A stretch of 11,410 nucleotides of DNA from Armatimonadota bacterium. Its GTDB lineage: Bacteria; Armatimonadota; Zipacnadia; Zipacnadales; UBA5352. Each line of letters begins with the position of its first letter. The first letter of the stretch is position 1. Made by a program: the position numbers and the translations under genes. Below, piece by piece: positions 1 to 11,357 of this stretch. The notes below the pieces were generated by a model. The model ran no database searches and was not told the origin of the DNA. It saw only the letters and a program-made list of their open reading frames with translations. Location: contig JAYENL010000163.1 in assembly GCA_034722055.1 (NCBI GenBank), positions 1 to 11,410 on the forward strand, given 5' to 3'.

Positions 1-1
1 C

Positions 2-754
2 GTCGGGGCCGGCCCCAGCGGGTTGATGGCCGGTCGCGAGCTGGCTCGCGCCGGCGGCAAGGCCCTGATCGTGGAGCGCAACAACTACCTCGGCGGCGGC
101 TTCTGGCTGGGCGGGTACCTGATGAACAAGGTGACGGTCCGCGATCCAGCCCAGCACATTCTCGAGGAGCTGGACGTGCCGTTCGAAGAGGCGCAGGAAC
201 GGCTCTACGTGGCAGACGGGCCTCACGCGTGTTCGAAGCTGATTGCGTCGGCCTGTGACGCGGGAGTTCGCGTGCTCAACATGACCGTCCTCGAGGATCT
301 GGTGGTCCGCGAGGGGCGCGTGGGCGGCGTGGTGGTCAACTGGACGCCGGTGCAGGCGCTGCCCCGGCAGATCACCTGCGTGGACCCGGTGGCGCTGGAG
401 GCGGAGGTGGTGGTGGATGCCACCGGTCACGACGCGGTGGCCGTGTGCGCGCTGGCGCGGCGCGGCCTCGTCGAGGTGCCCGGCTGCGGCGCCATGTGGG
501 TCGAGGGGTCCGAGGACGCGGTGGTGGAGGGGACCGGCGAGGTCTATCCCGGCCTGCACGCGTGCGGGATGGCTGTGGCGAGCGTCCGCGGACTCCCGCG
601 CATGGGCCCCACCTTCGGCGCCATGCTGATCTCGGGCCGTGAGGTCGCGCGTCAGATTCTGGCGTCCGGCCCCACTGGGATGGGGGCGGGGGCCCGAGAG
701 GGCGAAGTCGAGAGCATTCCCGCCACGCAGCAGTCAGAGGCCCAGAGACGATGA
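2..754 (+). CDS. thi4: Thi4-family thiazole (ADP-thiazole) synthase, Cys-type; 5' end lies outside the window
   Basis: Frame from base 2 reads VGAGPSGL (Rossmann GxGxxG), then [33 protein letters not shown] and [14 protein letters not shown], all hallmark Thi4 motifs. The ORF-track start at 23 is an artefact of truncation. Confidence 0.95.
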
Positions 755-761
755 TACCGAT

Positions 762-884
762 CAGGTCGTTGCATCTCAGCCGCATGGCGATGCCCCAGCC
801 GCGGGCGCGCCGGCGCTTCCCCCTGCCGGCGCGTTCGCGGCGCGCTGCGCGTGCCGGCTGAGGCAGGCTCCGCGCGACGACCTG
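762..884 (+). other. Long interrupted GC-rich stem-loop between thi4 and the DUF39 gene
   Basis: Nested pairings 762-772/874-884 (11 bp, one G-U), 775-782/855-862 (8 bp) and 799-814/825-840 (16 bp, two G-U) around the loop GCTTCCCCCT. Confidence 0.65.
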
Positions 885-1012
885 CCACCGATGTGATGTT
901 CCCCCCTCAGTCGGTCACGCACTTCCGTTGCCCTGTTGCACCGATCGGCGCAGCGAGCGCATGCCACAGATACTGCAGCGCCCGCACGGGCGCGCGGAGG
1001 GAGTGCTGACAG

Positions 1013-2236
1013 ATGCCCAAGACATACGAGCAGATCAACGAGAGGATCAGGGCCGGGGAGGCCGTGGTGGTCACCGCCGAGGAGATGATCGACACCGTGG
1101 AGGAGAACGGTGTCGAGGCAGCGGCCGAGCAGGTGGACGTGGTCACCACAGGCACCTTCGCGCCCATGTGCTCGTCGGGTGCCTTCATCAACTTCGGCCA
1201 CGCCAATCCCCGAATCAAGGTCCAGAAGGCGTGGCTCAATGACGTGAACGCCTACGCCGGGCTGGCGGCGGTTGACCTCTACATCGGCGCCACTGAGGTG
1301 CCCGAGCACGACCCGCTCAACCGCGAGCATCCCGGCGAGTTCAGGTACGGCGGCGGCCACGTCATCGAGGACCTGGTGGCCGGCCGCGATGTGCGGCTGC
1401 GGGCGGTGGCCTACGGGACCGACTGCTACCCGCGGCGGGAGCTGGACACGTGGATCAGGCTGGATGACCTCAACGAGGCCTTTCTGTGCAATCCGCGCAA
1501 CGCCTATCAGAACTACAATGTGGCCGTGAACGCGCACGCCGACCGGCCGATCTACACCTACATGGGCGTGCTCAAGCCCGAGTTGGGCAACGCCAACTAC
1601 TGCTCGGCCGGCCAGCTCAGCCCGCTGCTGAACGATCCGCTCTACCGGACCATCGGCATCGGCACGCGGATCTTCCTGGGCGGCGCGCAGGGCTACGTGT
1701 TCTGGCAGGGCACCCAGCACAACCCGACGGTGGATCGCACCGAGGGCGGCGTACCCAGGGGCGGAGCCGGCACCCTCTCTGTCGTCGGCGACCTCAAGCA
1801 GATGAGCCAGCGGTGGATCAGGGGCGTGAGCCTCTACGGCTACGGCGTGTCGCTCAGCGTGGGCCTGGGCATCCCCATCCCGGTGCTGAACGAGGAGATC
1901 GCGCGTTTCACCGCGGTCCGGGATGAGGACATCGTGGCGCCGATCGTGGACTACAGTCGCGGCTACCCCTACAGCGAAAGCGGGCCGCTGGGCCACGTCA
2001 GCTACGCCCAGCTCAAGACCGGCGAGATCGAGATCGACGGACGGGCTGTGCCCACGGCGTCGCTGTCCAGCTACCCCAGGGCGCAGGAGATCGCTCAGAC
2101 GCTCAAGGAGTGGATCCAGGCGGGCCAGTTCCTGCTGTCGCGGCCCGCGGAGCTGCTGCCCTCGGCGGAGTCGGGCCTGACCTTCAAGTCGCTGAGGGAG
2201 CGTCCGGTCGAGGAGGAGGTGGCTGCACGTGGCTAA
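1013..2236 (+). CDS. Homocysteine biosynthesis protein / L-aspartate semialdehyde sulfurtransferase (DUF39, MA1821-like), no CBS domains
   Basis: Motifs KTYEQINERI, VDVVTTGTFAPMCSSGAF (conserved Cys, codon 1169-1171), YGGGHVIEDL, NPRNAYQNY, IYTYMG, GQLSPLLNDP, IGIGTRIFLGGAQGYV and GTQH. SD-like GGAGGGAG upstream. Confidence 0.93.
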   Translation: MPKTYEQINERIRAGEAVVVTAEEMIDTVEENGVEAAAEQVDVVTTGTFAPMCSSGAFINFGHANPRIKVQKAWLNDVNAYAGLAAVDLYIGATEVPEHDPLNREHPGEFRYGGGHVIEDLVAGRDVRLRAVAYGTDCYPRRELDTWIRLDDLNEAFLCNPRNAYQNYNVAVNAHADRPIYTYMGVLKPELGNANYCSAGQLSPLLNDPLYRTIGIGTRIFLGGAQGYVFWQGTQHNPTVDRTEGGVPRGGAGTLSVVGDLKQMSQRWIRGVSLYGYGVSLSVGLGIPIPVLNEEIARFTAVRDEDIVAPIVDYSRGYPYSESGPLGHVSYAQLKTGEIEIDGRAVPTASLSSYPRAQEIAQTLKEWIQAGQFLLSRPAELLPSAESGLTFKSLRERPVEEEVAARG

Positions 2237-2636
2237 GGCCAGAGTGGTCTTTCACTACCCCAGGGCGCTGATCGACGCGCCCATCGCCTCGCGGGTGGCG
2301 CGCGACTTCGACCTGGAGTTCAACATTCTGCGCGCGAACATCACGCCGGACTCGCAGGGCCTGCTGGTGCTGGAGCTGTCGGGCGATCCTCAGGCGCTGA
2401 GCGATGCGCTCGAGTGGGCCGGCGAGCAGGGCGTAGCGGTCCAGCCGCTGGAGCGGGATGTGGTGCGGGACGACGACCTCTGCACCCAGTGCGGGGCCTG
2501 CGTCACCATCTGCCCCACCGCCGCCCTCTCCAGGGACCCGCGCACCCAGGAGGTGGGATTCGATCCGGAGGAGTGCGTGGCGTGCGAGCTGTGCGTGCCC
2601 GCGTGCCCGCCGCACGCCATGACGGTGGCGTTCTGA
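2229..2636 (+). CDS. NIL-domain 2x[4Fe-4S] ferredoxin (MA1822-like partner of the DUF39 enzyme)
   Basis: N-terminal FNILRANI (NIL domain) followed by CTQCGACVTICP and CVACELCVPACP. GTG start overlaps the end of the DUF39 gene, with GAGGAGGAGG upstream. Confidence 0.93.
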   Translation: MAKARVVFHYPRALIDAPIASRVARDFDLEFNILRANITPDSQGLLVLELSGDPQALSDALEWAGEQGVAVQPLERDVVRDDDLCTQCGACVTICPTAALSRDPRTQEVGFDPEECVACELCVPACPPHAMTVAF

Positions 2637-2647
2637 CGGTGTCGCGT

Positions 2648-2696
2648 CCCGGCCGGCGAGCGGTCTCCCATCCCTCCCTGACGCTCTCCGGCCGGG
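2648..2696 (+). other. Intergenic hairpin with C-rich loop upstream of cysK
   Basis: CCCGGCCGG(C)GAGCG at 2648-2662 pairs with CGCTC(T)CCGGCCGGG at 2682-2696. No U-tract follows. Confidence 0.55.
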
Positions 2697-2741
2697 CTTC
2701 CCAGCCAAAGGACGAATGAGGCAAGAGGAGGCGCACCCGCC

Positions 2742-3674
2742 ATGAGCATCGCTCAGGACGTCACGGAGCTTATCGGTGACACCCCGCTGGTGGAGCTGGA
2801 ACGCCTGGCCGATCGGCTGCCGGGCCGGGTGGTGGCGAAGCTGGAGGCATTCAACCCCGGCTTCAGCGTCAAGGACCGCATCGCACTGTCGATGATCGAG
2901 GCGGCGGAGCGTACCGGCCGAATCGGCCCGAACACCATCCTGGTGGAGCCGACGTCGGGCAACACGGGCATCGGGCTGGCGGTGGTGGCCGCCGCGAAGG
3001 GCTACCCGCTGGTGCTGACGATGCCGGAGAGCATGTCCATCGAGCGCCGGCGGCTGCTGAAGGCTCTGGGCGCCGACCTGGTGCTCACCCCCGCGGAGGA
3101 GGGTATGAAGGGCGCCATCGAGCAAGCACTGGACCTGGTGGACAGCGACGACAGGTACCTGGTCCTGCAGCAGTTCGAGAATGAGGCGAACCCGGAGGTC
3201 CACCGACTCACGACCGCCCAAGAGATCTGGGACGATACCGGCGGAGCCGTGGACATCTTCGTGGCCGGCGTGGGCACTGGCGGCACCATCACGGGCGTGG
3301 CGGAGGTGCTGAAGACGCTTAAGCCCGAGGTGAAGGCGATTGCCGTCGAGCCGGCGGACTCCGCGGTGCTGTCCGGGGGCGAGCCCGGGTCGCACAACAT
3401 CCAGGGCATCGGCGCCGGCTTTGTGCCCGAGGTGCTCAACCGCGAGGTGATCGACGAGGTGATCGCCGTGGAGAGTGACGCGGCCATCAGCACGGCACGC
3501 GCGCTGGCACGAAGAGAGGGCATCCTGGCCGGGATCTCGTCCGGCGCCGCCGCCTGGGCGGCCCTGCAGGTGGCTCAGCGCAATGACAGCGAGGGCAAGC
3601 TGATCGTCACCGTGCTGCCCGACACCGGCGAGCGGTATCTCTCCACGCAGCTCTTCGCTCTCAATGACCGGTAG
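2742..3674 (+). CDS. cysK: Cysteine synthase A (O-acetylserine sulfhydrylase)
   Basis: [23 protein letters not shown] (PLP Lys), [43 protein letters not shown] and [19 protein letters not shown] at 2725-2731. Confidence 0.97.
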
Positions 3675-3763: not shown

Positions 3764-5167
3764 CTACGGCTCCAGGGCACTGGCCGAGTAGTCCGTGCGC
3801 TCGACCGCGGCCACAAGCTCCTGCGCGGTGACCGCTCCCTTCTCGGCGGTCACGCGAGCGGTGCTGGATTCAAGACTCACCTCCGCCCGGACAACGCCAC
3901 GCACCCCCTCAAGCGCGCCGGTGACAGTCGCCACGCACTTCTCGCAGGTCATCCCCTCGATCGTCAGTCGGAAGGTCTCCGTGTCCATGGCACTCTCCTC
4001 CTCGCGCACTGCCGCTTCGACGACTGCAAGCAGGTCCTCCTCCTCCCAGAAGGTCCCCGGCCCCATGATGAAGCTCACCTGGCGGTCCTCGCCGTTCTGA
4101 CTGATGGTCACGTTCCGCCGGCCATTGACCAGCACAGCCCCGCAGGTCAGGCCCGCCTCCTGCCAGCGCCTGAAGCCCTCGTCAGTCTGGAAGTCCACGA
4201 ACTCAGTGCTGACGGCGCCCCTGTGCTTCTGCTCAATGCGGTCCAGCAGCTGTTTGATGTGCTGGTGTGTCTCATTGTCCGGGTAGAAGGCGACCACGCT
4301 GACCTTCGCGTCTGCCACGCCGGGGGCGTCAACCGGCTCCAGCCCGTTCCCCTCCAGCAGCGCCAGGCCCCTCTCGGAGACCATGAAGGCCACGAACTCC
4401 GCCGCCAGCTCTGGCTCCGGCGCGTCTCGAAGCACGGCGACCACCGCCTCGGCGGGCCCGTAGCTGTCTCTGGGCAGCTCGAAGGCGATCTCCACCGCCT
4501 TCTGCGGGATCTTGTCCTCGCTGGTCTGCAGCGGGCAGCGCAGGTACATGAAGCCCGCCTGGGACTGTCCCTTGGCCACCATCTGGTGGGACTCGATGGC
4601 GTGATCGGTGAGGATCATGTTCGGCTGCAGCCGCTCCCACAGCTCAAGCGCGGTCAGGGCCTCGCGCGCGTAGAGGCCGGCGGAGTTGAGCGAGGGGTCG
4701 GGGCAGGAGATGGTCTCGGCCTTGAGGAGGTCGTCGGGCGCCTCGATCCCCGCCGGGTTGCCCGCCGGCACGGCGCAGACGAGCGTGAGGCGGGCGAATG
4801 AACGCCTGGAGTCCGGCTGGATCAGGCCCGCGTCCTCCAGCAGCCTCATCTGCTGCTCGCCCGGCGAGATGAAGACGTCCGCCGCCTCGCCCCTGTCGCG
4901 GATGCGCTTGGCCAGCACCACGGCATTGTCGAGAACCGTCTCGATATCGACCCCCTGGTGCTGTCGCTCGAACTCGTCGGTGACGGCCCTCAGGGGCAGG
5001 ACCATGCCACACGGCACCATGATCCTGATCGAGCGCGTGACGGGCGGCGTGCCCGCAGCAGCCGGCGTCGCCTCCACCTGGTCGGTGCCCTCTCGGCAGC
5101 CAACCGAGAGCGCCACGAGGCCGAGTAGGAGGAACGCCACCAGGTGCGCTGCCCTTCTCGCGTGCAT
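3764..5167 (-). CDS. Lipoprotein: ModA-like substrate-binding domain + thioredoxin-like domain + C-terminal HMA (CopZ-like) domain
   Basis: Lipobox LSVG|C24. ModA-fold motifs ADVFISPG, FARLTLVCAVPAGNPAGI, PDPSLNSAGLYAREAL and PELAAEFVAFMVSERG. The middle beta-alpha-beta..VLVNG segment resembles a thioredoxin fold (less certain). C-terminal LTIEGMTCEKCV..V..AL is a classic HMA motif. Confidence 0.88.
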   Translation of the reverse strand: MHARRAAHLVAFLLLGLVALSVGCREGTDQVEATPAAAGTPPVTRSIRIMVPCGMVLPLRAVTDEFERQHQGVDIETVLDNAVVLAKRIRDRGEAADVFISPGEQQMRLLEDAGLIQPDSRRSFARLTLVCAVPAGNPAGIEAPDDLLKAETISCPDPSLNSAGLYAREALTALELWERLQPNMILTDHAIESHQMVAKGQSQAGFMYLRCPLQTSEDKIPQKAVEIAFELPRDSYGPAEAVVAVLRDAPEPELAAEFVAFMVSERGLALLEGNGLEPVDAPGVADAKVSVVAFYPDNETHQHIKQLLDRIEQKHRGAVSTEFVDFQTDEGFRRWQEAGLTCGAVLVNGRRNVTISQNGEDRQVSFIMGPGTFWEEEDLLAVVEAAVREEESAMDTETFRLTIEGMTCEKCVATVTGALEGVRGVVRAEVSLESSTARVTAEKGAVTAQELVAAVERTDYSASALEP

Positions 5168-5181
5168 TGCGCCTCACCATC

Positions 5182-6306
5182 CTACAGATTCAGCATGCAC
5201 TCGCAGATGTACTCACCGATCTCGCTGGCGAACAGCCAGGCGGCGCCGGTGGTGAAGACGACCTCGCAGGCGATGAAGGCCGCCGCCTTCCGCCATCCGA
5301 CACAGCGGGCGATGATCACCGCTCCCGGCAGGCTGGCGCCGGTGCCGGTCAACAGGATCGCCATGGCTGGCCCGGTCGCCAGCCCCAGCTTCATCATGGC
5401 CTTCGCGAACACCACCTCGGACAGGACGGGGAAGTACATCAGCTCCCCGAAGAGGTCCGCGAACATCAGCGAGCGCATGGAGTTGTCCCCCACGTTGCGG
5501 TAGATCCACTTGATGTCCACGTACATCGTCGCTAAGCCAATGGCGATGACGGCGGGGATCAGCACGGGGATGACGGTTTTGAGCAGGTCCCATGTCTCCC
5601 GCCACCACCGGCGGGCGTCCTCGGACGTAAAGCCCCAGGCCATCAGCACCACCACACCGCCGGAGATGCCCACCATCCCCGCCACCTTCCAGCCCACGCC
5701 CGTCTCCACAGCGCCGAAGACTACCATGGCGGTGAGCAGGCCGAACAGGCCCCATGTCTTCAGCCCGAGGGTGTCCACATTCGTCGTCGGCCCCTCCGGC
5801 AGCTCCACCCGCCGGTCCTCCCGCCCGAACAGCACGGCCATCGTCAGCCCACTGACCACCCCCACCAACGGTACAAGGATGGCGCGCCAGAGGCCGATCT
5901 GCCAGCCGATGGCTTTGAAGACCAGGACCAGGGAGACGAGGTTGATCGCCGGCCCGGCGTAGAGGAAGGTGCTGGCAGGGCCGATGCCCGCCCCCGTCCG
6001 GTAGATGCTCACGAACAGCGGCACCACGTTGCACGAGCACAGCGATAGGACGGTCCCGGAGATGGCGGCGACGGAGTACGACACGGACCTGCGCGCGCCG
6101 CTGCCGAGGTATCTGAGGGTGACCGCCGGGGGGACGAAGGCGGCCACGGCACCGGCCAGCAGGAAGGCCGGCAGCACCGTCACCATCGCCTCGCACGTGA
6201 AGAGGCAGCACTGGAAGACATCGACGACCTCGGCAAGCGTCTCGGCAGCGCCCGTGGCTCTCTCGCTCCTTCCCGTCCTGTCCCACGACCGGCGCCCGAC
6301 CGTCAA
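5182..6306 (-). CDS. DUF318/ArsP-family predicted permease (start codon uncertain)
   Basis: Multiple hydrophobic helices with family motifs PAFLLAGA, GTVLSLCSCNVVPLFVSIYRTGAGIGPASTFLYAGPAIN and GLATGPAMAILLTGTGASLP. The N-terminal ~25 residues from TTG 6306 may not be translated. Confidence 0.88.
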   Translation of the reverse strand: MTVGRRSWDRTGRSERATGAAETLAEVVDVFQCCLFTCEAMVTVLPAFLLAGAVAAFVPPAVTLRYLGSGARRSVSYSVAAISGTVLSLCSCNVVPLFVSIYRTGAGIGPASTFLYAGPAINLVSLVLVFKAIGWQIGLWRAILVPLVGVVSGLTMAVLFGREDRRVELPEGPTTNVDTLGLKTWGLFGLLTAMVVFGAVETGVGWKVAGMVGISGGVVVLMAWGFTSEDARRWWRETWDLLKTVIPVLIPAVIAIGLATMYVDIKWIYRNVGDNSMRSLMFADLFGELMYFPVLSEVVFAKAMMKLGLATGPAMAILLTGTGASLPGAVIIARCVGWRKAAAFIACEVVFTTGAAWLFASEIGEYICECMLNL

Positions 6307-6629: not shown

Positions 6630-7523
6630 ATGAAAGGGCTGAAGATTGCTGCAATCCTGATGGCATTGGCCATCATCCCCGCCGTGGTAGCGGCCGTGGG
6701 ATGCGCGCGCAACGTGGGAGAGGACATCGCCCCGCCGGCTCGAGACGAGCCTGTAGAGGCCGCGCAGCGGGACCTGTATCTTGCGGTGGCATGTGGTGTG
6801 GCGGGGCCGTACGGGGAGATCAAGGAGAGGTTTGAGCAGGCGCACCCTGAGGTGACACTGCACCAGGAGATCGGCAACATCGTGACCATGGCCGAGCGCC
6901 TGCGCGACGGCCGGGCCAGCGCCGACATGTTCATGAGCGTCGGCAGCGTGGCGCTGGGCGAGCTGCATGAGGAGGGCCTGCTGCTGGAGCCGCCCATGGA
7001 CTTCGCGGAGGACCGCCTGGTGGTGCTCGTTCCCGAGGGCAATCCGAAGGACATCGAGGAGCTTGAGGACCTGGCCGACGATGGCGTGGAGACGGTGGCG
7101 GTGGCCGCGAGCAAGTCCACGCCGGGGCACTTCGCGGAGATGGCCCTGCGCCGGGCCGGACTGTGGGAGCCGCTCCAGGACCGTCTCGTCCGCCCTGACA
7201 AGCCCGCCATGCTCAAGGGCTTCGTCTCTGAGGGCAAGGCCGACGCGGCGGTCATGCTGCTCACCTGCGCCACGAAGGAGGCGGAGATGGGCGAGGAGCC
7301 CGCCGAGGGCGTCCCCGGAACGGAGATCGCGCTTGAGGTGCCGCACAAGTACTACGACCGGCTCGTCTGTCAGATCGGCATCCTCAGGAACGCGTCCGAT
7401 CCGGAGCTGGCGCGGGAGTTCGCGGAGTTCGTCACCACCGATGAGCCGCAGCGGATCCTGTCGCGGTGGGATTTCGCGCCCTGCGAGAGGGCCGGCGAAG
7501 GGGATGCGTCAGCCGAAACGTGA
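6630..7523 (+). CDS. ModA-like substrate-binding lipoprotein with non-canonical (Cys) binding-site motifs
   Basis: ATG 6630 follows GGAGGAG. Lipobox AAVG|C25. Motifs ADMFMS, FAEDRLVVLVPEGNPKDI..LEDL, TPGHFAEMALRRAGLWE, VSEGKADAA and PELAREFAEFV. Confidence 0.88.
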   Translation: MKGLKIAAILMALAIIPAVVAAVGCARNVGEDIAPPARDEPVEAAQRDLYLAVACGVAGPYGEIKERFEQAHPEVTLHQEIGNIVTMAERLRDGRASADMFMSVGSVALGELHEEGLLLEPPMDFAEDRLVVLVPEGNPKDIEELEDLADDGVETVAVAASKSTPGHFAEMALRRAGLWEPLQDRLVRPDKPAMLKGFVSEGKADAAVMLLTCATKEAEMGEEPAEGVPGTEIALEVPHKYYDRLVCQIGILRNASDPELAREFAEFVTTDEPQRILSRWDFAPCERAGEGDASAET

Positions 7524-7540: not shown

Positions 7541-8107
7541 ATGGCGGTCACCATCAGCATCTACCACGCACCCAAGCGCTGCGCGAAGTGCGAGCGCATG
7601 GAGGAGATGGCGCGCGAGGTGGCGGCCTCGTTCCCGGGGCGGGTCGAGATCGTTCTCACGCCCGTGGGTGAGGCACCCGCGGAGCTGGGCGTGATCATGC
7701 CGCCGAGCATGGCCGTGGACGGCCAGTTGGTGGCTGTTGGCAGGCTGCCCAACAAGCAGGACGTCGCCGCCACGGTCGCCGAGGCCCTGGGCGGAGAGCA
7801 GCCCACGGGCGCCGCCGGCCCGGGCGGCAGCGCCTTCGGGCACGGCCGAGCGGTGATCGAGGGCGAAAGGGTCTACGTGTGCGCGGAGGACTTCTCGGAT
7901 CGCTCCGGCTGCCAGCCCATGCTCCTGTTCTGGTACGTCGATGAGGGCGACAGCGTTGAGGAGGGGCAGGAGCTAGCGGAGGTGGAGTCGGCCAAGGCGG
8001 TCTTCGTCATCGAGAGCCCCGTCAATGGGCTGCTCGAAGAGATCCTGGTCACTGAGGGGGAGACCATCGAGCCGAACCAGCGCCTGGCGGCGCTGAGGGC
8101 GGAGTAG
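7541..8107 (+). CDS. Fusion of a small CxxC thioredoxin-like domain (MTH895/redox-active disulfide protein 2 type) and a lipoyl/biotinyl-carrier domain
   Basis: N-terminal CAKC (7580-7591) plus LGVIMPPSMAVDGQLVAVGRLP. C-terminal WYVDEGDSVEEGQELAEVESAKAVFVIESPVNGLLEEILVTEGETI with lipoyl-type Lys at 7994-7996. SD GAGGGAG precedes ATG 7541; alternative ATG 7523 overlaps the upstream stop. Confidence 0.88.
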   Translation: MAVTISIYHAPKRCAKCERMEEMAREVAASFPGRVEIVLTPVGEAPAELGVIMPPSMAVDGQLVAVGRLPNKQDVAATVAEALGGEQPTGAAGPGGSAFGHGRAVIEGERVYVCAEDFSDRSGCQPMLLFWYVDEGDSVEEGQELAEVESAKAVFVIESPVNGLLEEILVTEGETIEPNQRLAALRAE

Positions 8108-8157: not shown

Positions 8158-10317
8158 ATGATCTATCTCGATAACGCCGCAACCACGCCTGTGGACGAGC
8201 GAGTTCTGGAGGCCATGCTGCCGTATCTGCGGCGGGACTTCGGCAATCCCAGCAGCTCGCACGCCGCCGGGAGGGCGGCGCGAAGGGCGGTGGAGGAGGC
8301 CCGAGGCGCCGTGGCCGCAGCGATCGGCGCCGAGCCGTCACAGCTCATCTTCACCACCTCGGGCACCGCCGCCAGCAACCTCGCCATCCGCGGCACACTC
8401 GGCGCACTTGGGGGCGACCGGGGACACGTAGTTACAAGCGCCATCGAGCACGCGAGCGTCCACAGGATTGTGAGGGCGCTGGGGGAGGCGGGGTGGCTCA
8501 CCACGGTGCTGCCGGTCACCCCCGAGGGGCAGGGTGAGCCTGAGACGCTGCAGGCCGCGCTGCGCCCGGACACGGCGCTGGTGTCCATCATGTACGGGAA
8601 CAACGAGATCGGCTCGCTGCAGCCCGTCGGCGAGATCGGCGCCCTGTGTCGGGAGCGCGGCGTGCTCTTTCACTGCGATGCGGTGCAGGCCCTCGGCCAC
8701 GTGCCCTTGGAACTGGCCCAGCTTCCGGTGGCCTTCATGAGCTTCTCGGGCCATAAGATCAACGCGCCCAAGGGCGTCGGGGCACTGTTCGTGCGCGACA
8801 GGTCGCTGCTGCAGCCGGTCTTGACCGGCGGCGGCCAGGAGCAGGGGCTGTGGCCGGGAACGGAGGCGGTGGCGAACATCGTTGCCCTCGGCGCGGCGGC
8901 TCGGCTGCTTCCCGAGCTGCTGGCTGCAAGCGAGGAGATGGCCCGCCTCCGCGATGAGCTCATCGAGCAGGTGCTCGACGGAGTGCCGGGAGCACGGGCC
9001 ACCGGGCATCGCACCGAGCGCCTGCCGCACATCGCCAGCTTCTGCTTCGAGGGCGTGTCCGGCGACGCCCTCGTCATGGCCCTGGACCAGCGCGGCATCT
9101 GCGCATCGACGGGCGCGGTGTGCTCCAGCGGCTCGGGTAAGCCCTCCCGGGTTCTCCAGGCGATCGGGCTGTCGGATCGGCTGGCGGGGAGCTCGCTGCG
9201 TCTGAGCCTGGGGCGCCGGAGCACGGCCGGGGAGGTGCGCGAGGCGGCGCAGGCGGTGGTGCAGATCGTGAACGCGCTCCGCTCGGAGGGCGCCCCGAGG
9301 GCACACAGGCGGCGTCCGCTGAACCCGGCGCTGGCGGGCCCCGTTGAGGCTGGGCGCCTCGATGCCCAGGAGCGGCGGCGACTCACAGACGAGATCAATG
9401 CGCTGGGCGGCCAGAGGGGCGCGGTCGTCGTGGCCCACAACGCGCAGCTCCCGGAGGTCCAGGACATCGCCGATGAGTGCGGCGGCATCGGGCATCTGAT
9501 GCGGGCGGCGCTGGATGCGAAGGCCGGCACCATCGTCTCCTGCGGCGTCTCGTTCATGGCGGAGCTGATCGCCTGCCTGCGTCCGGATGTGATGGTGCTG
9601 AACCCGTCGTCTGATGCCCGCTGTCCCATGCGCCGAATGGTCTCCGTTGAGGACGTCCGCGAGCTGCGGGCGGCGCATCCTGACGCTCCAGTGGTGGCCT
9701 GTGCGAAGACCGGCCCGGAGGTCATCGCCGAGGCCGACATCTGCTGCACACCCGACAACGCCGTGGCCGTGGTGGGCTCGCCCACCTCCGATCAGGTCAT
9801 CATGGTGCCGGACCGCAACCTCGCCGCCTGGGTGCAGAGCCGGCTTCCGGAGGCGGAGGTCATCGCCGCGGAGGGCTACTGCCCGCCGCATCGAGTGATG
9901 ACGCTGGAGGTGCTCGAGGCGGCGACCCGCAGACATCCCGACCTGTTGATACTGGCGCACCCTCACTGTTCGCGGGAGGTGCTGGGACGTGCGGACTTCA
10001 TCGGCGGCAGTGACGGGATGGTGGAGTTCGCGCGCCGGCAGGAGAACCGGGAGATGCTGGTGGTGAGCGAATGCGGCCTTGTGCACCGCCTGCGGCGGGA
10101 GCAGCCGCAGGCCACCTTCCACGCCGCCCCGCAGATGGTCTGCGCGACCATGAAGCGTGTGGGCCGGCGCGAGGTCCGGGACGCCCTCCGCGATACGCGT
10201 GAGGTCGTTTCCGTGGACCCCGGTACCGCGCATCGCGCTGCAGGTGCCATCAACCGGATGCTGGAGGTTGTCGCGAGCGTGCCCGACCACCACACAAGTG
10301 AGGGGAGCACAAAGTGA
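8158..10317 (+). CDS. Group I cysteine desulfurase (IscS/NifS-like) fused to a divergent NadA-like [4Fe-4S] domain
   Basis: Desulfurase part (~8158-9282): IYLDNAATTP, FGNPSS, IEHASV, NNEIG, HCDAVQA, SGHK (PLP Lys 8755), GGGQE, STGAVCSSG (catalytic Cys 9121), SLRLSLGR. NadA-like part (~9382-10270): AHNAQ.PEVQDIAD, CGVSFMAE, CPM, PDRNL, YCPPH, AHPHC, CATMK. Confidence 0.92.
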   Translation: MIYLDNAATTPVDERVLEAMLPYLRRDFGNPSSSHAAGRAARRAVEEARGAVAAAIGAEPSQLIFTTSGTAASNLAIRGTLGALGGDRGHVVTSAIEHASVHRIVRALGEAGWLTTVLPVTPEGQGEPETLQAALRPDTALVSIMYGNNEIGSLQPVGEIGALCRERGVLFHCDAVQALGHVPLELAQLPVAFMSFSGHKINAPKGVGALFVRDRSLLQPVLTGGGQEQGLWPGTEAVANIVALGAAARLLPELLAASEEMARLRDELIEQVLDGVPGARATGHRTERLPHIASFCFEGVSGDALVMALDQRGICASTGAVCSSGSGKPSRVLQAIGLSDRLAGSSLRLSLGRRSTAGEVREAAQAVVQIVNALRSEGAPRAHRRRPLNPALAGPVEAGRLDAQERRRLTDEINALGGQRGAVVVAHNAQLPEVQDIADECGGIGHLMRAALDAKAGTIVSCGVSFMAELIACLRPDVMVLNPSSDARCPMRRMVSVEDVRELRAAHPDAPVVACAKTGPEVIAEADICCTPDNAVAVVGSPTSDQVIMVPDRNLAAWVQSRLPEAEVIAAEGYCPPHRVMTLEVLEAATRRHPDLLILAHPHCSREVLGRADFIGGSDGMVEFARRQENREMLVVSECGLVHRLRREQPQATFHAAPQMVCATMKRVGRREVRDALRDTREVVSVDPGTAHRAAGAINRMLEVVASVPDHHTSEGSTK

Positions 10318-11357
10318 AGCCTACACGACCGGCAGCTTTCGCGCGCGTGGCGCTGGCGGCGACAGAAGCGCTCTTCCTCGCCGCGGTGCTCGCGGGGTCA
10401 GGCTGCACGACGAACCGCAGTGCCGATGCCATCACGGCCGACAGCAGCGATGCAGGTGCCGCTGCCGAAGAGCTGGTCATCTTCCACGCCGAGGACCTGA
10501 CGCGCCCCTTCAGCGCCCTGGAGGCCATCCTGGAGCGCCGCGAGCCGGGGCTGGACGTCGTGCGCGAGTCCGGCAGCAGCGAGATGGCGTGCCGGAAGGT
10601 AACCGACCTCGGCCGCAGGGCCGACGTGGTGGCGGTCACCGACTACTCCCTGATCGACCAGATGCTGATACCCGACCTCACGAGCTGGGCGGTGACCTTC
10701 GCCCGCAATCGCATCGTGCTGCTCTACGGGGAGGCAAGCCGCCACCATACCGAGATCGGCAGCGACAACTGGTTCGAGATCCTGCTGCGGGAGGACGTAA
10801 CCTACGGCTACGCCGACCCGTCCATCGCGCCGGTGGGCTACCGGACGCTGCTGAGCTTCAGGCTGGCGGACATTCACCACGGGGGCGGCGACGGGCGTCT
10901 CTACGAGCGCCTTGTCCGAGGCTGCCCGGAGACGAACATCCGCCCGCACTGCGAGCAGCTTTTCCCGATGGTCCAGTCGGGATCGCTGGACTACGTCTTC
11001 CACTATCGATCCCTGGCAGCCCAGCACCACCTGCAATACGTTGAGCTGGCCCCGCAGGTGGATCTGAGCGATCCAGCTCTGGCGGACCAGTACGCTCGGG
11101 CGAGCGTTGAGATTCCCGGGGGACCGGGCGGGCGGCCCGAGACGGTCACGGGCAGGCCCATCGTCTACGCCATCACGATCCTGGACGACGCGGGCAACCG
11201 GCAGGCGGCGATGGGCTTCCTGCGCCTGCTTTTAGGCTCGGAGGGCCGGAAGGCACTCGAGGAGCACCTCCTGGACCTCACGCAGCCGAACGTCACCCCC
11301 GGCTCCGAGCGCCCGCCGGAGGAGCTCGCCGATCTGATTGACGACACTGTCTCCTGA
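10314..11357 (+). CDS. WtpA-like (tungstate/molybdate-binding family) lipoprotein with altered ligand residues
   Basis: GTG start overlaps the upstream TGA. Lipobox LAGSG|C31. WtpA-type motifs LVIFHA, RKVTDLGRRADVVAVTDYSLI, NWFEILLR, GYRT, LDYVFHYRSLAAQHHLQYVEL..VDLSDP and PIVYAITI. Confidence 0.9.
   Translation: MKPTRPAAFARVALAATEALFLAAVLAGSGCTTNRSADAITADSSDAGAAAEELVIFHAEDLTRPFSALEAILERREPGLDVVRESGSSEMACRKVTDLGRRADVVAVTDYSLIDQMLIPDLTSWAVTFARNRIVLLYGEASRHHTEIGSDNWFEILLREDVTYGYADPSIAPVGYRTLLSFRLADIHHGGGDGRLYERLVRGCPETNIRPHCEQLFPMVQSGSLDYVFHYRSLAAQHHLQYVELAPQVDLSDPALADQYARASVEIPGGPGGRPETVTGRPIVYAITILDDAGNRQAAMGFLRLLLGSEGRKALEEHLLDLTQPNVTPGSERPPEELADLIDDTVS

Follow-up and report, generated by a model that had tools for sequence, protein, structure and literature searches.

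The window, an 11,410-nucleotide stretch of an Armatimonadota contig, carries a forward-strand gene (positions 7541..8107) that is preceded by a purine-rich Shine-Dalgarno-like stretch and encodes a 188-aa protein in which an MTH895/ArsE-like thioredoxin, a linker, and a Cys-loop lipoyl domain follow one another. In a Pfam scan, Thioredoxin_3 (PF13192) matched residues 12–78 around the motif C14-A-K-C17 (38.3 bits, cut-off 24.8), and Biotin_lipoyl (PF00364) matched residues 130–184 around E-S-A-K152-A (58.6 bits, cut-off 22.1). AlphaFold2 modeled two folded domains (mean pLDDT 83). The thioredoxin-fold domain (residues 1–85, 7541..7795, forward strand) holds C14 (7580-7582) and C17 (7589-7591); a Gly/Ala/Pro-rich, poorly conserved linker at about residues 84–103 (7790..7849, forward strand) is disordered in the model (pLDDT <50 at residues 93–98); and the E2-type lipoyl domain (residues 104–188, 7850..8104, forward strand) is acidic, with 20 Asp and Glu against 6 Lys and Arg. 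The predicted lipoylation site, K152 (7994..7996, forward strand), lies in the turn between strands 144–149 and 154–158. These data agree with the first-pass annotation, which had described a CAKC thioredoxin joined through a Gly/Ala linker to a lipoyl domain with an ESAKA motif. The same annotation had placed a segment with two more Cys between the domains; C114 (7880..7882) and C124 (7910..7912) are indeed present on the forward strand, but both lie inside the lipoyl domain, and there is no separate segment.

Immediately downstream of the fusion gene, as previously claimed, lies a cysteine desulfurase gene (8158..10317, forward strand, starting 50 bp further on), whose product keeps the PLP Lys motif and the catalytic-loop Cys and is fused to a NadA-like domain (9358-10317, forward strand); this is followed by a gene for a WtpA-like tungstate-binding protein identified in an NCBIfam scan (10314..11357, forward strand) and, just outside the window, by two DGC genes and an aquaporin gene (contig C163, 11847-13596). 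A ModA-like lipoprotein with conserved C55 and C213 at the ligand cleft is encoded 17 bp upstream of the fusion gene (6630..7523, forward strand). On the reverse strand are genes for an ArsP/DUF318-family permease with a CSC motif (5182..6306; PF03773, 157 bits) and, from profile scans and an alignment, for a second two-Cys ModA-like lipoprotein with a C-terminal HMA (CxxC) domain (3764..5167). The start of the window (1-3674, forward strand) contains a sulfide-using cluster recognized by Pfam and NCBIfam, namely Thi4, HcyBio with NIL-ferredoxin, and CysK. Scanned with Pfam and NCBIfam, the 10 main genes of the window included no E1, E2, E3, or glycine-cleavage gene, in line with the first-pass annotation; parts of dehydrogenase and glycine-cleavage systems do occur outside the window, elsewhere in the same genome.

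A search of 1161 candidates for relatives of the fusion protein gave 8 matches, 7 of which are full-length fusions with 54–95% identity, and all seven named genome records with a relative are Armatimonadota MAGs. All 8 close fusions share C14, C17, C114, C124, and K152 without exception, and the dN/dS of the gene against its closest relative is 0.15 (one pair). Because full-length fusions recur at this identity and the dN/dS is this low, the fusion is not a chance joining; it is real, conserved, and under purifying selection. At one locus (L017:10001-10612) the fusion gene is frameshifted and no desulfurase follows, the copy being either a pseudogene or an assembly error, and in one genome a BioB-like radical SAM gene lies directly 3' of the fusion gene (L016:9023-10006).

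The thioredoxin half has the features of Thioredoxin_3: a profile score over the cut-off, a CxxC, and the Pro expected in the cis-Pro loop. C14, K16, C17, and P55 are invariant in 15/15 thioredoxin sequences. TIGR00412 (MTH895/ArsE) is the family that most members match (15/15), although the window domain itself, at 33.6 bits, is below the curated cut-off of 62; the domain also matches MTH895 in the PDB (1ILO, E = 2e-4). SaoT was rejected as an identity for it (16 of 65 bits). A second thioredoxin-fold protein, which lacks CxxC (e.g. L023:3907-4188), is conserved and has no Pfam match in most members; it is fused to an aquaporin at one locus (L024) and to a lipoyl domain in one protein (P0012). 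At another locus, a gene upstream of the module joins an excisionase-type HTH to a thioredoxin of the MTH895 family (L026:458-1030), and a relative in the window genome (C38:54315-54905) precedes an ABC transporter.

The lipoyl half was modeled as residues 104–188, all in strands (pLDDT 92.5). Foldseek gave matches to lipoyl and biotinyl domains alike, and K152 aligns with the DKA Lys of 1LAB. The best family and PDB matches are E2 lipoyl domains, above biotin carriers, and the best lipoyl model scores 46 bits against 26–33 bits for the BCCP models. The hallmark of biotin carboxyl carrier proteins is a Met-Lys-Met motif; this assignment was ruled out by the ESAKA motif and by BCCP scores lower than that of the lipoyl model. 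Assignment as the E2 subunit of a 2-oxoacid dehydrogenase failed for want of an E3-binding or catalytic domain and of adjoining E1 genes, and GcvH was rejected because PF01597 (GCV_H), a profile of ~125 aa, matches over only 35 residues and scores 19.8 bits against a cut-off of 22.2. In the model, C114 ends the first strand and C124 is in the loop before the second strand. In E2 domains, this strand 1–2 loop is described as a near neighbor of the lipoyl-Lys turn (PMC6270654), so that C124 is predicted to sit in the loop beside that turn.

A profile built from 18 lipoyl domains retrieved 118 short proteins, and subfamily membership was set, over all proteins fetched, at domains scoring at least 75 bits (n = 80). 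Among these 80, the C124 column is Cys in 71, 7 are truncated before the column, and 2 borderline members have Asp or Ile; of 325 lower-scoring lipoyl domains, 176 cover the column and 1 of these has Cys, a split that is partly circular because the profile seeds were Cys-bearing. An independent genome search also showed a score gap: 14/401 phylum genomes matched at E ≤ 1.2e-21, and the next match was at 6e-16. The lipoyl Lys, on whose conservation the first-pass annotation had staked its reading, is kept in 78/80 domains, and the two proteins P0022 and P0115 keep the loop Cys with the Lys absent. The residues before the Lys are mostly AKA or AKS, with DKA in 2/80 and at loci L075-L079; distant members carry the canonical ETDKA, and no motif variant counted in the 80 domains has Met-Lys-Met. 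Of the Cys pair that had been pointed out, C124 is nearly family-wide, but C114 is specific to a clade, being invariant in 8/8 close fusions and present in 2/18 rows of the wider alignment. Based on these alignments, the lipoyl half belongs to a subfamily of its own among E2-type lipoyl domains, marked by a near-invariant Cys. Its distribution is patchy, and 0/12 other genomes of the window's own family contain it.

Most subfamily proteins are not fused: 65 of the 80 stand alone and 15 are joined to a thioredoxin, 11 as thioredoxin(CxxC)-lipoyl, 3 as lipoyl-thioredoxin(CxxC), and 1 with a thioredoxin that lacks CxxC. A short, rough tree groups the reversed fusions in a single well-supported clade and sets the forward fusion P0186 away from the others, for which reason we consider that fusion probably arose more than once. 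The concern that the two domains might be separate genes in all relatives is thereby removed, and the window fusion is one form of a larger Armatimonadota module.

To define this module, 21 non-redundant subfamily loci were compared with 20 ordinary lipoyl-domain loci from the same genome sample over 8 kb around each; the test contigs were shorter on average (11.8 versus 14.3 kb covered), and no P value is given because the loci are kin and the neighbor queries came from the test loci. The loop Cys itself was found at 21/21 test and 0/20 control loci. Within 8 kb, a cysteine desulfurase and a CxxC thioredoxin were each found at 15/21 test loci and 0/20 controls, the homologous thioredoxin without CxxC at 13/21 versus 0/20 (the broken copy at L017 not counted), and a ModA-like gene at 8/21 versus 0/20. 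ArsP (7 of 21), DGC (6), aquaporin (5), and ArsM-like (4) genes were each absent from the controls; at least one of these four was present at 12/21 versus 0/20 loci, and the other 9/21 test loci, several of them on short contigs, had none within this distance. HcyBio, ThiF, and ThiS were each near 3/21 loci (HcyBio at L017 and L021, as well as in the window), WtpA near 2, and AOR near 1, and L025 has a modABC-type operon. E1-alpha was within 8 kb at 0/21 test and 13/20 control loci, and E3 at 1/21 and 0/20. The neighbor scans showed no LbpA-type (shdr) context, and no lipoate ligase or LipA, for which the first-pass annotation had suggested searching near homologs, is linked to the module. The commonest gene order is thioredoxin (no CxxC), lipoyl, thioredoxin (CxxC), desulfurase. 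The adjoining thioredoxin lacks CxxC at L078 and L079, no thioredoxin is within 8 kb at L072, L073, L076, and L077, and at L075, L076, and L077 the lipoyl gene lies with an aquaporin or ArsM-like gene and has no adjoining thioredoxin or desulfurase.

The desulfurase of the module has a distinctive end. All 11 complete unfused module desulfurases terminate in CxxxCPC, as do 30/30 loci returned by a wider search (L116-L145, e.g. L023:4835-6034), where a thioredoxin usually adjoins; the window desulfurase has no such tail. Its NadA-like domain, found also at L015, keeps three Cys and has lost active-site residues (HNAQ for HNYQ and other changes; dN/dS 0.35), and an intact iscS-nadA pair is present on contig C242 of the same genome. 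This domain may be an Fe-S scaffold that replaces the CxxxCPC tail. The tailed desulfurase occurs in 32/401 phylum genomes, again with a score gap, including 12/13 other genomes that carry the lipoyl subfamily; no subfamily match was found in the remaining 20/32. Of 11 tailed loci read from genomes without a lipoyl match, 10 have a thioredoxin nearby and none has a lipoyl gene, from which we conclude that the core of the module is desulfurase plus thioredoxin and that the lipoyl domain is an accessory. In family f39, the tailed desulfurase lies beside an ABC ATPase that by eye resembles WtpC/ModC.

Several neighbors only resemble the families they recall. Two Cys are present at the ligand cleft in 12/13 aligned ModA-like lipoproteins, which are not canonical molybdate binders; relatives occur in 57/401 genomes (Cys checked in part of them). 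These lipoproteins are often paired with an ArsP permease, and some have an extra domain with a conserved CG motif. The ArsP-family permease matches SaoE (89 of 325 bits) and SO_0444 below their cut-offs, as does every ars-family NCBIfam match of the module. An ArsM-derived protein was found in 4/401 genomes of 3 families (L076:9586-10776, L077:8001-9236, L078:8030-9256, and L079:about 9500-10700), and in 4/4 its gene is 9–216 bp from the lipoyl gene. It has a degenerate SAM motif, keeps two Cys in its C-terminal domain, scores 66–92 bits of 500 with NF040538 (three scanned in frame), and gave no PDB match; identity as a true ArsM was rejected, since 4/4 lack the three Cys motifs present in the ArsM of the window genome. 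The window genome has an ArsM over the cut-off beside an Acr3-like permease (by eye) at C287:1377-3330, a contig separate from the module.

The window genome encodes LipA (contig C186), an E3 (C240), an ordinary thioredoxin reductase, and two GcvH, one next to a lipoate ligase-family protein (C10) and the other accompanied by P-protein genes. Of 13 other subfamily carriers, 12 have a ligase, 12 an E3 over the cut-off, and 10 a LipA; LipA was not found in the remaining 3/13, whose genomes are 72–93% complete. The presence of these enzymes is necessary but not specific. A ketoacyl-synthase cluster of the same genome that includes E1-alpha (C104:236-5194) also encodes a lipoyl protein whose tail resembles an E3-binding domain, and another contig has a free E2 catalytic domain (C257:20190-20888), as though one E2 had been split.

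From the architecture, conservation, neighborhood, and presence of lipoylation enzymes observed above, we infer lipoylation and the following chemistry. Housekeeping ligase and LipA would lipoylate K152, as the motif, fold, and genome content suggest, and dihydrolipoamide dehydrogenase, by its known chemistry, could reduce the lipoyl arm with NADH. The dihydrolipoyl arm would then pass electrons to C14/C17, probably via a mixed disulfide with C124, and the thioredoxin, given its gene coupling, would act on the adjoining desulfurase to resolve a persulfide or a metalloid on the three-Cys tail; reduced sulfur and electrons would thereby reach a thiophilic substrate. The presence of ArsP, aquaporin, DGC, and the two-Cys ModA-like lipoproteins makes a trivalent (organo)arsenical or a similar soft metal(loid) the candidate for that substrate. 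The proposal is, in short, a dedicated lipoyl-to-thioredoxin electron relay (NADH -> E3 -> lipoyl-K152 -> C124 -> CxxC) that reduces a desulfurase persulfide or a bound metalloid within an ArsP/ArsE/DGC-type system, and we lend it slightly less belief than doubt. Dithiols release sulfide from enzyme persulfides. Lipoylated proteins are described as NADH-linked reductants of AhpD, Ohr, and OsmC (PMC8945050; PMC4069020), and an acetoin dehydrogenase operon of Pseudodesulfovibrio mercurii ND132 is reported to respond to As(V) with no obvious link found (bioRxiv 10.1101/2022.10.17.512643). Against the relay, genes for ligase, LipA, and E3 are not linked to the module, and glycine cleavage would by itself call for these enzymes elsewhere in the genome; electrons need not take a lipoyl route, since the genome has an ordinary thioredoxin reductase; the lipoyl part is an accessory; and some loci have no thioredoxin or one without CxxC. 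The arsenic part of the reading is weakened by ars scores below cut-off, by the 9/21 loci that lack the markers, by the location of the clear ars genes on another contig, by ArsM-like neighbors that have neither the ArsM Cys motifs nor an intact SAM motif, and by the reported inclusion of Cu/Zn exporters among ArsP-family relatives (bioRxiv 10.1101/2022.07.06.499078).

Other explanations share much of this evidence. The dihydrolipoyl dithiol and C124 could form a three-sulfur site for As(III), methylarsenite, or Sb(III), serving as a decoy for the central lipoyl enzymes and handing its load to the thioredoxin, the desulfurase tail, or ArsP. The predicted position of C124 next to the Lys turn (a model read against E2 domains, PMC6270654), the three Cys by which ArsR is reported to bind As(III) (bioRxiv 10.1101/2022.10.17.512643), the reported inhibition of PDH by methylarsenite through lipoate (PMC12608789), the many two- and three-Cys sites across the system, and the three loci at which the lipoyl gene has an aquaporin or ArsM-like neighbor and no adjoining thioredoxin or desulfurase all favor such a trap, but it would leave the tight desulfurase link (15/21) unexplained and has to accommodate the loci without arsenic-type markers, so that we regard it as unlikely though worth weighing. 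The first-pass idea of a tethered dithiol pair acting as a shuttle or as a trap for As(III)-like species is partly supported: the conserved desulfurase partner and the enrichment of arsenic- and metal-type genes speak for it at the genomic level, but the tether is optional. A role in sulfur supply unrelated to arsenic, in which persulfide would be stripped to sulfide for sulfide-using enzymes or would feed ThiF/MoeB-ThiS/MoaD for Mo/W cofactor, seems to us about equally doubtful: it accords with the sulfide-dependent Thi4, HcyBio/NIL-ferredoxin pair, and CysK of the window, with the HcyBio, ThiF, ThiS, WtpA, AOR, and modABC-type genes near some loci, and with the reported precedent of LbpA, a lipoyl protein with Cys that serves sulfur metabolism (bioRxiv 10.64898/2026.10.01.755906), yet these neighbors differ between loci, are often on the opposite strand, and, except for the two-Cys ModA-like genes, are rarer than ArsP, DGC, and aquaporin, whose link to the module, like that of the ArsM-like genes, it would not explain. 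The relay, the trap, and sulfur supply are not mutually exclusive. In a bolder reading that we hold less likely still, the lipoyl arm and loop Cys would capture a trivalent arsenical or similar metalloid and, with the CxxC thioredoxin and the three-Cys-tail desulfurase, convert it enzymatically to a thio-species for export via ArsP or aquaporin.

Two further readings are less likely than any of these. A domain that is not lipoylated (or is biotinylated), acting as a plain Cys-bearing scaffold or as a persulfide carrier via C124, would fit the loop Cys being at least as conserved as the Lys, the two proteins that keep the Cys and lack the Lys, the three carriers in which LipA was not found, and the several module members that look like enzymes with lost catalytic residues. 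The retention of the Lys, the ETDKA motif of distant members, and the lack of any counted Met-Lys-Met make this improbable, as does the acidic surface, a property reported for substrates of canonical ligases (bioRxiv 10.64898/2026.10.01.755906). We find it very hard to credit that the protein is a spare H protein of glycine cleavage or a lipoyl arm that has come away from a split 2-oxoacid dehydrogenase. JGI labels many members "E2 component," and there is the free E2 catalytic domain on C257, but E1-alpha is near none of the 21 test loci and near 13/20 controls, the genome has its own lipoyl protein beside E1-alpha (C104) and two GcvH, and the GCV_H score is below cut-off. In E2 domains, changing the DKA Asp is reported to leave lipoylation intact and to slow acylation by E1 (PMC6270654), so that Ala in this position would be expected to lower E1 acylation.

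The placement of this domain with a desulfurase and arsenic/metal genes, rather than with the usual metabolic complexes, suggests that lipoic acid has an undescribed job here. Lipoylation is, to our knowledge, rare, and the types of acceptor known are few, namely E2 subunits, GcvH, and LbpA; the subfamily is a candidate new acceptor class, and databases currently mislabel its members as "biotin carboxyl carrier protein" or "E2 component." Through it, lipoate is connected both with the poorly understood ArsP/ArsE/DGC set and with desulfurases whose CxxxCPC tail is undescribed. A search of the full-text literature, with closed-access papers and preprint supplements outside its scope, returned no description of the thioredoxin-lipoyl architecture, which apparently belongs to an undescribed conserved module beyond one odd gene. 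Since donor and acceptor thiols are in one soluble 188-residue chain, electron flow, persulfide transfer, and As(III) binding should be tractable with a few point mutants. A positive outcome would bear on the formation of microbial thioarsenicals, which is listed as unknown in bioRxiv 10.1101/2022.10.17.512643; if the thiolation reading were true, the module would be a genetically encoded metalloid-thiolation pathway and a new use of lipoic acid, in which the classic toxic target of arsenic is turned into a tool for handling it.

The protein could not be placed in SAO, E2, GcvH/LbpA, BCCP, or, at the cut-off, TIGR00412, yet it resembles parts of several known systems. The E2 lipoyl domains of 2-oxoacid and acetoin dehydrogenases (PF00364; PDB 1LAB) share the ~80-residue fold, have the Lys in the same turn, and give the best sequence matches; the proteins described here differ in that they lack an E3-binding or catalytic domain and an E1 neighbor, mostly read AKA in place of DKA, and conserve a Cys at a position that is Thr, Ser, Glu, Ala, or Asp in E2 domains. 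LbpA of sHdr sulfur oxidation is likewise described by the Dahl lab as a free lipoyl protein with conserved extra Cys outside dehydrogenase complexes, and it has a role in sulfur redox, whereas the domain here is linked to sulfur by gene context (bioRxiv 10.64898/2026.10.01.755906). According to the same source, LbpA is GcvH-like, ~130 aa long, and basic at its surface, has two terminal Cys, and is encoded in shdr clusters with its own ligase and LipS1/S2; the present domain is E2-like and acidic, with one loop Cys and no ligase in the neighborhood.

The SAO system as reported by Haft and Gwadz (bioRxiv 10.1101/2022.07.06.499078) also combines an ArsP-family exporter, a thioredoxin-like protein, and binding proteins with cleft Cys, and is read as handling a heavy-metal species. 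It is built from other protein families: SaoE and SaoT are far under cut-off here, no MerB-like lyase or Sec was seen, and the nine-gene operon is absent; the main text of that paper contains neither "lipoyl" nor "lipoate." The arsenic-induced ArsR-ArsP-ArsE-DGC operon of P. mercurii ND132 is similarly reported to join ArsP, a PF13192 thioredoxin, and DGC, but in four genes with no lipoyl protein or desulfurase (bioRxiv 10.1101/2022.10.17.512643), and the window thioredoxin is below the TIGR00412 cut-off. The likeliest functional model for the fusion protein is given by the lipoyl-dependent thiol relays, Lpd-SucB/DlaT-AhpD-AhpC and Ohr/OsmC, in which electrons are described as passing from NADH through E3 and a lipoyl group to a protein dithiol (PMC8945050). 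Those relays are reported to borrow the E2 of central metabolism and to serve peroxidases (PMC8945050), whereas in the Armatimonadota module the lipoyl domain is dedicated, is sometimes fused to its acceptor, and has a desulfurase as its partner.
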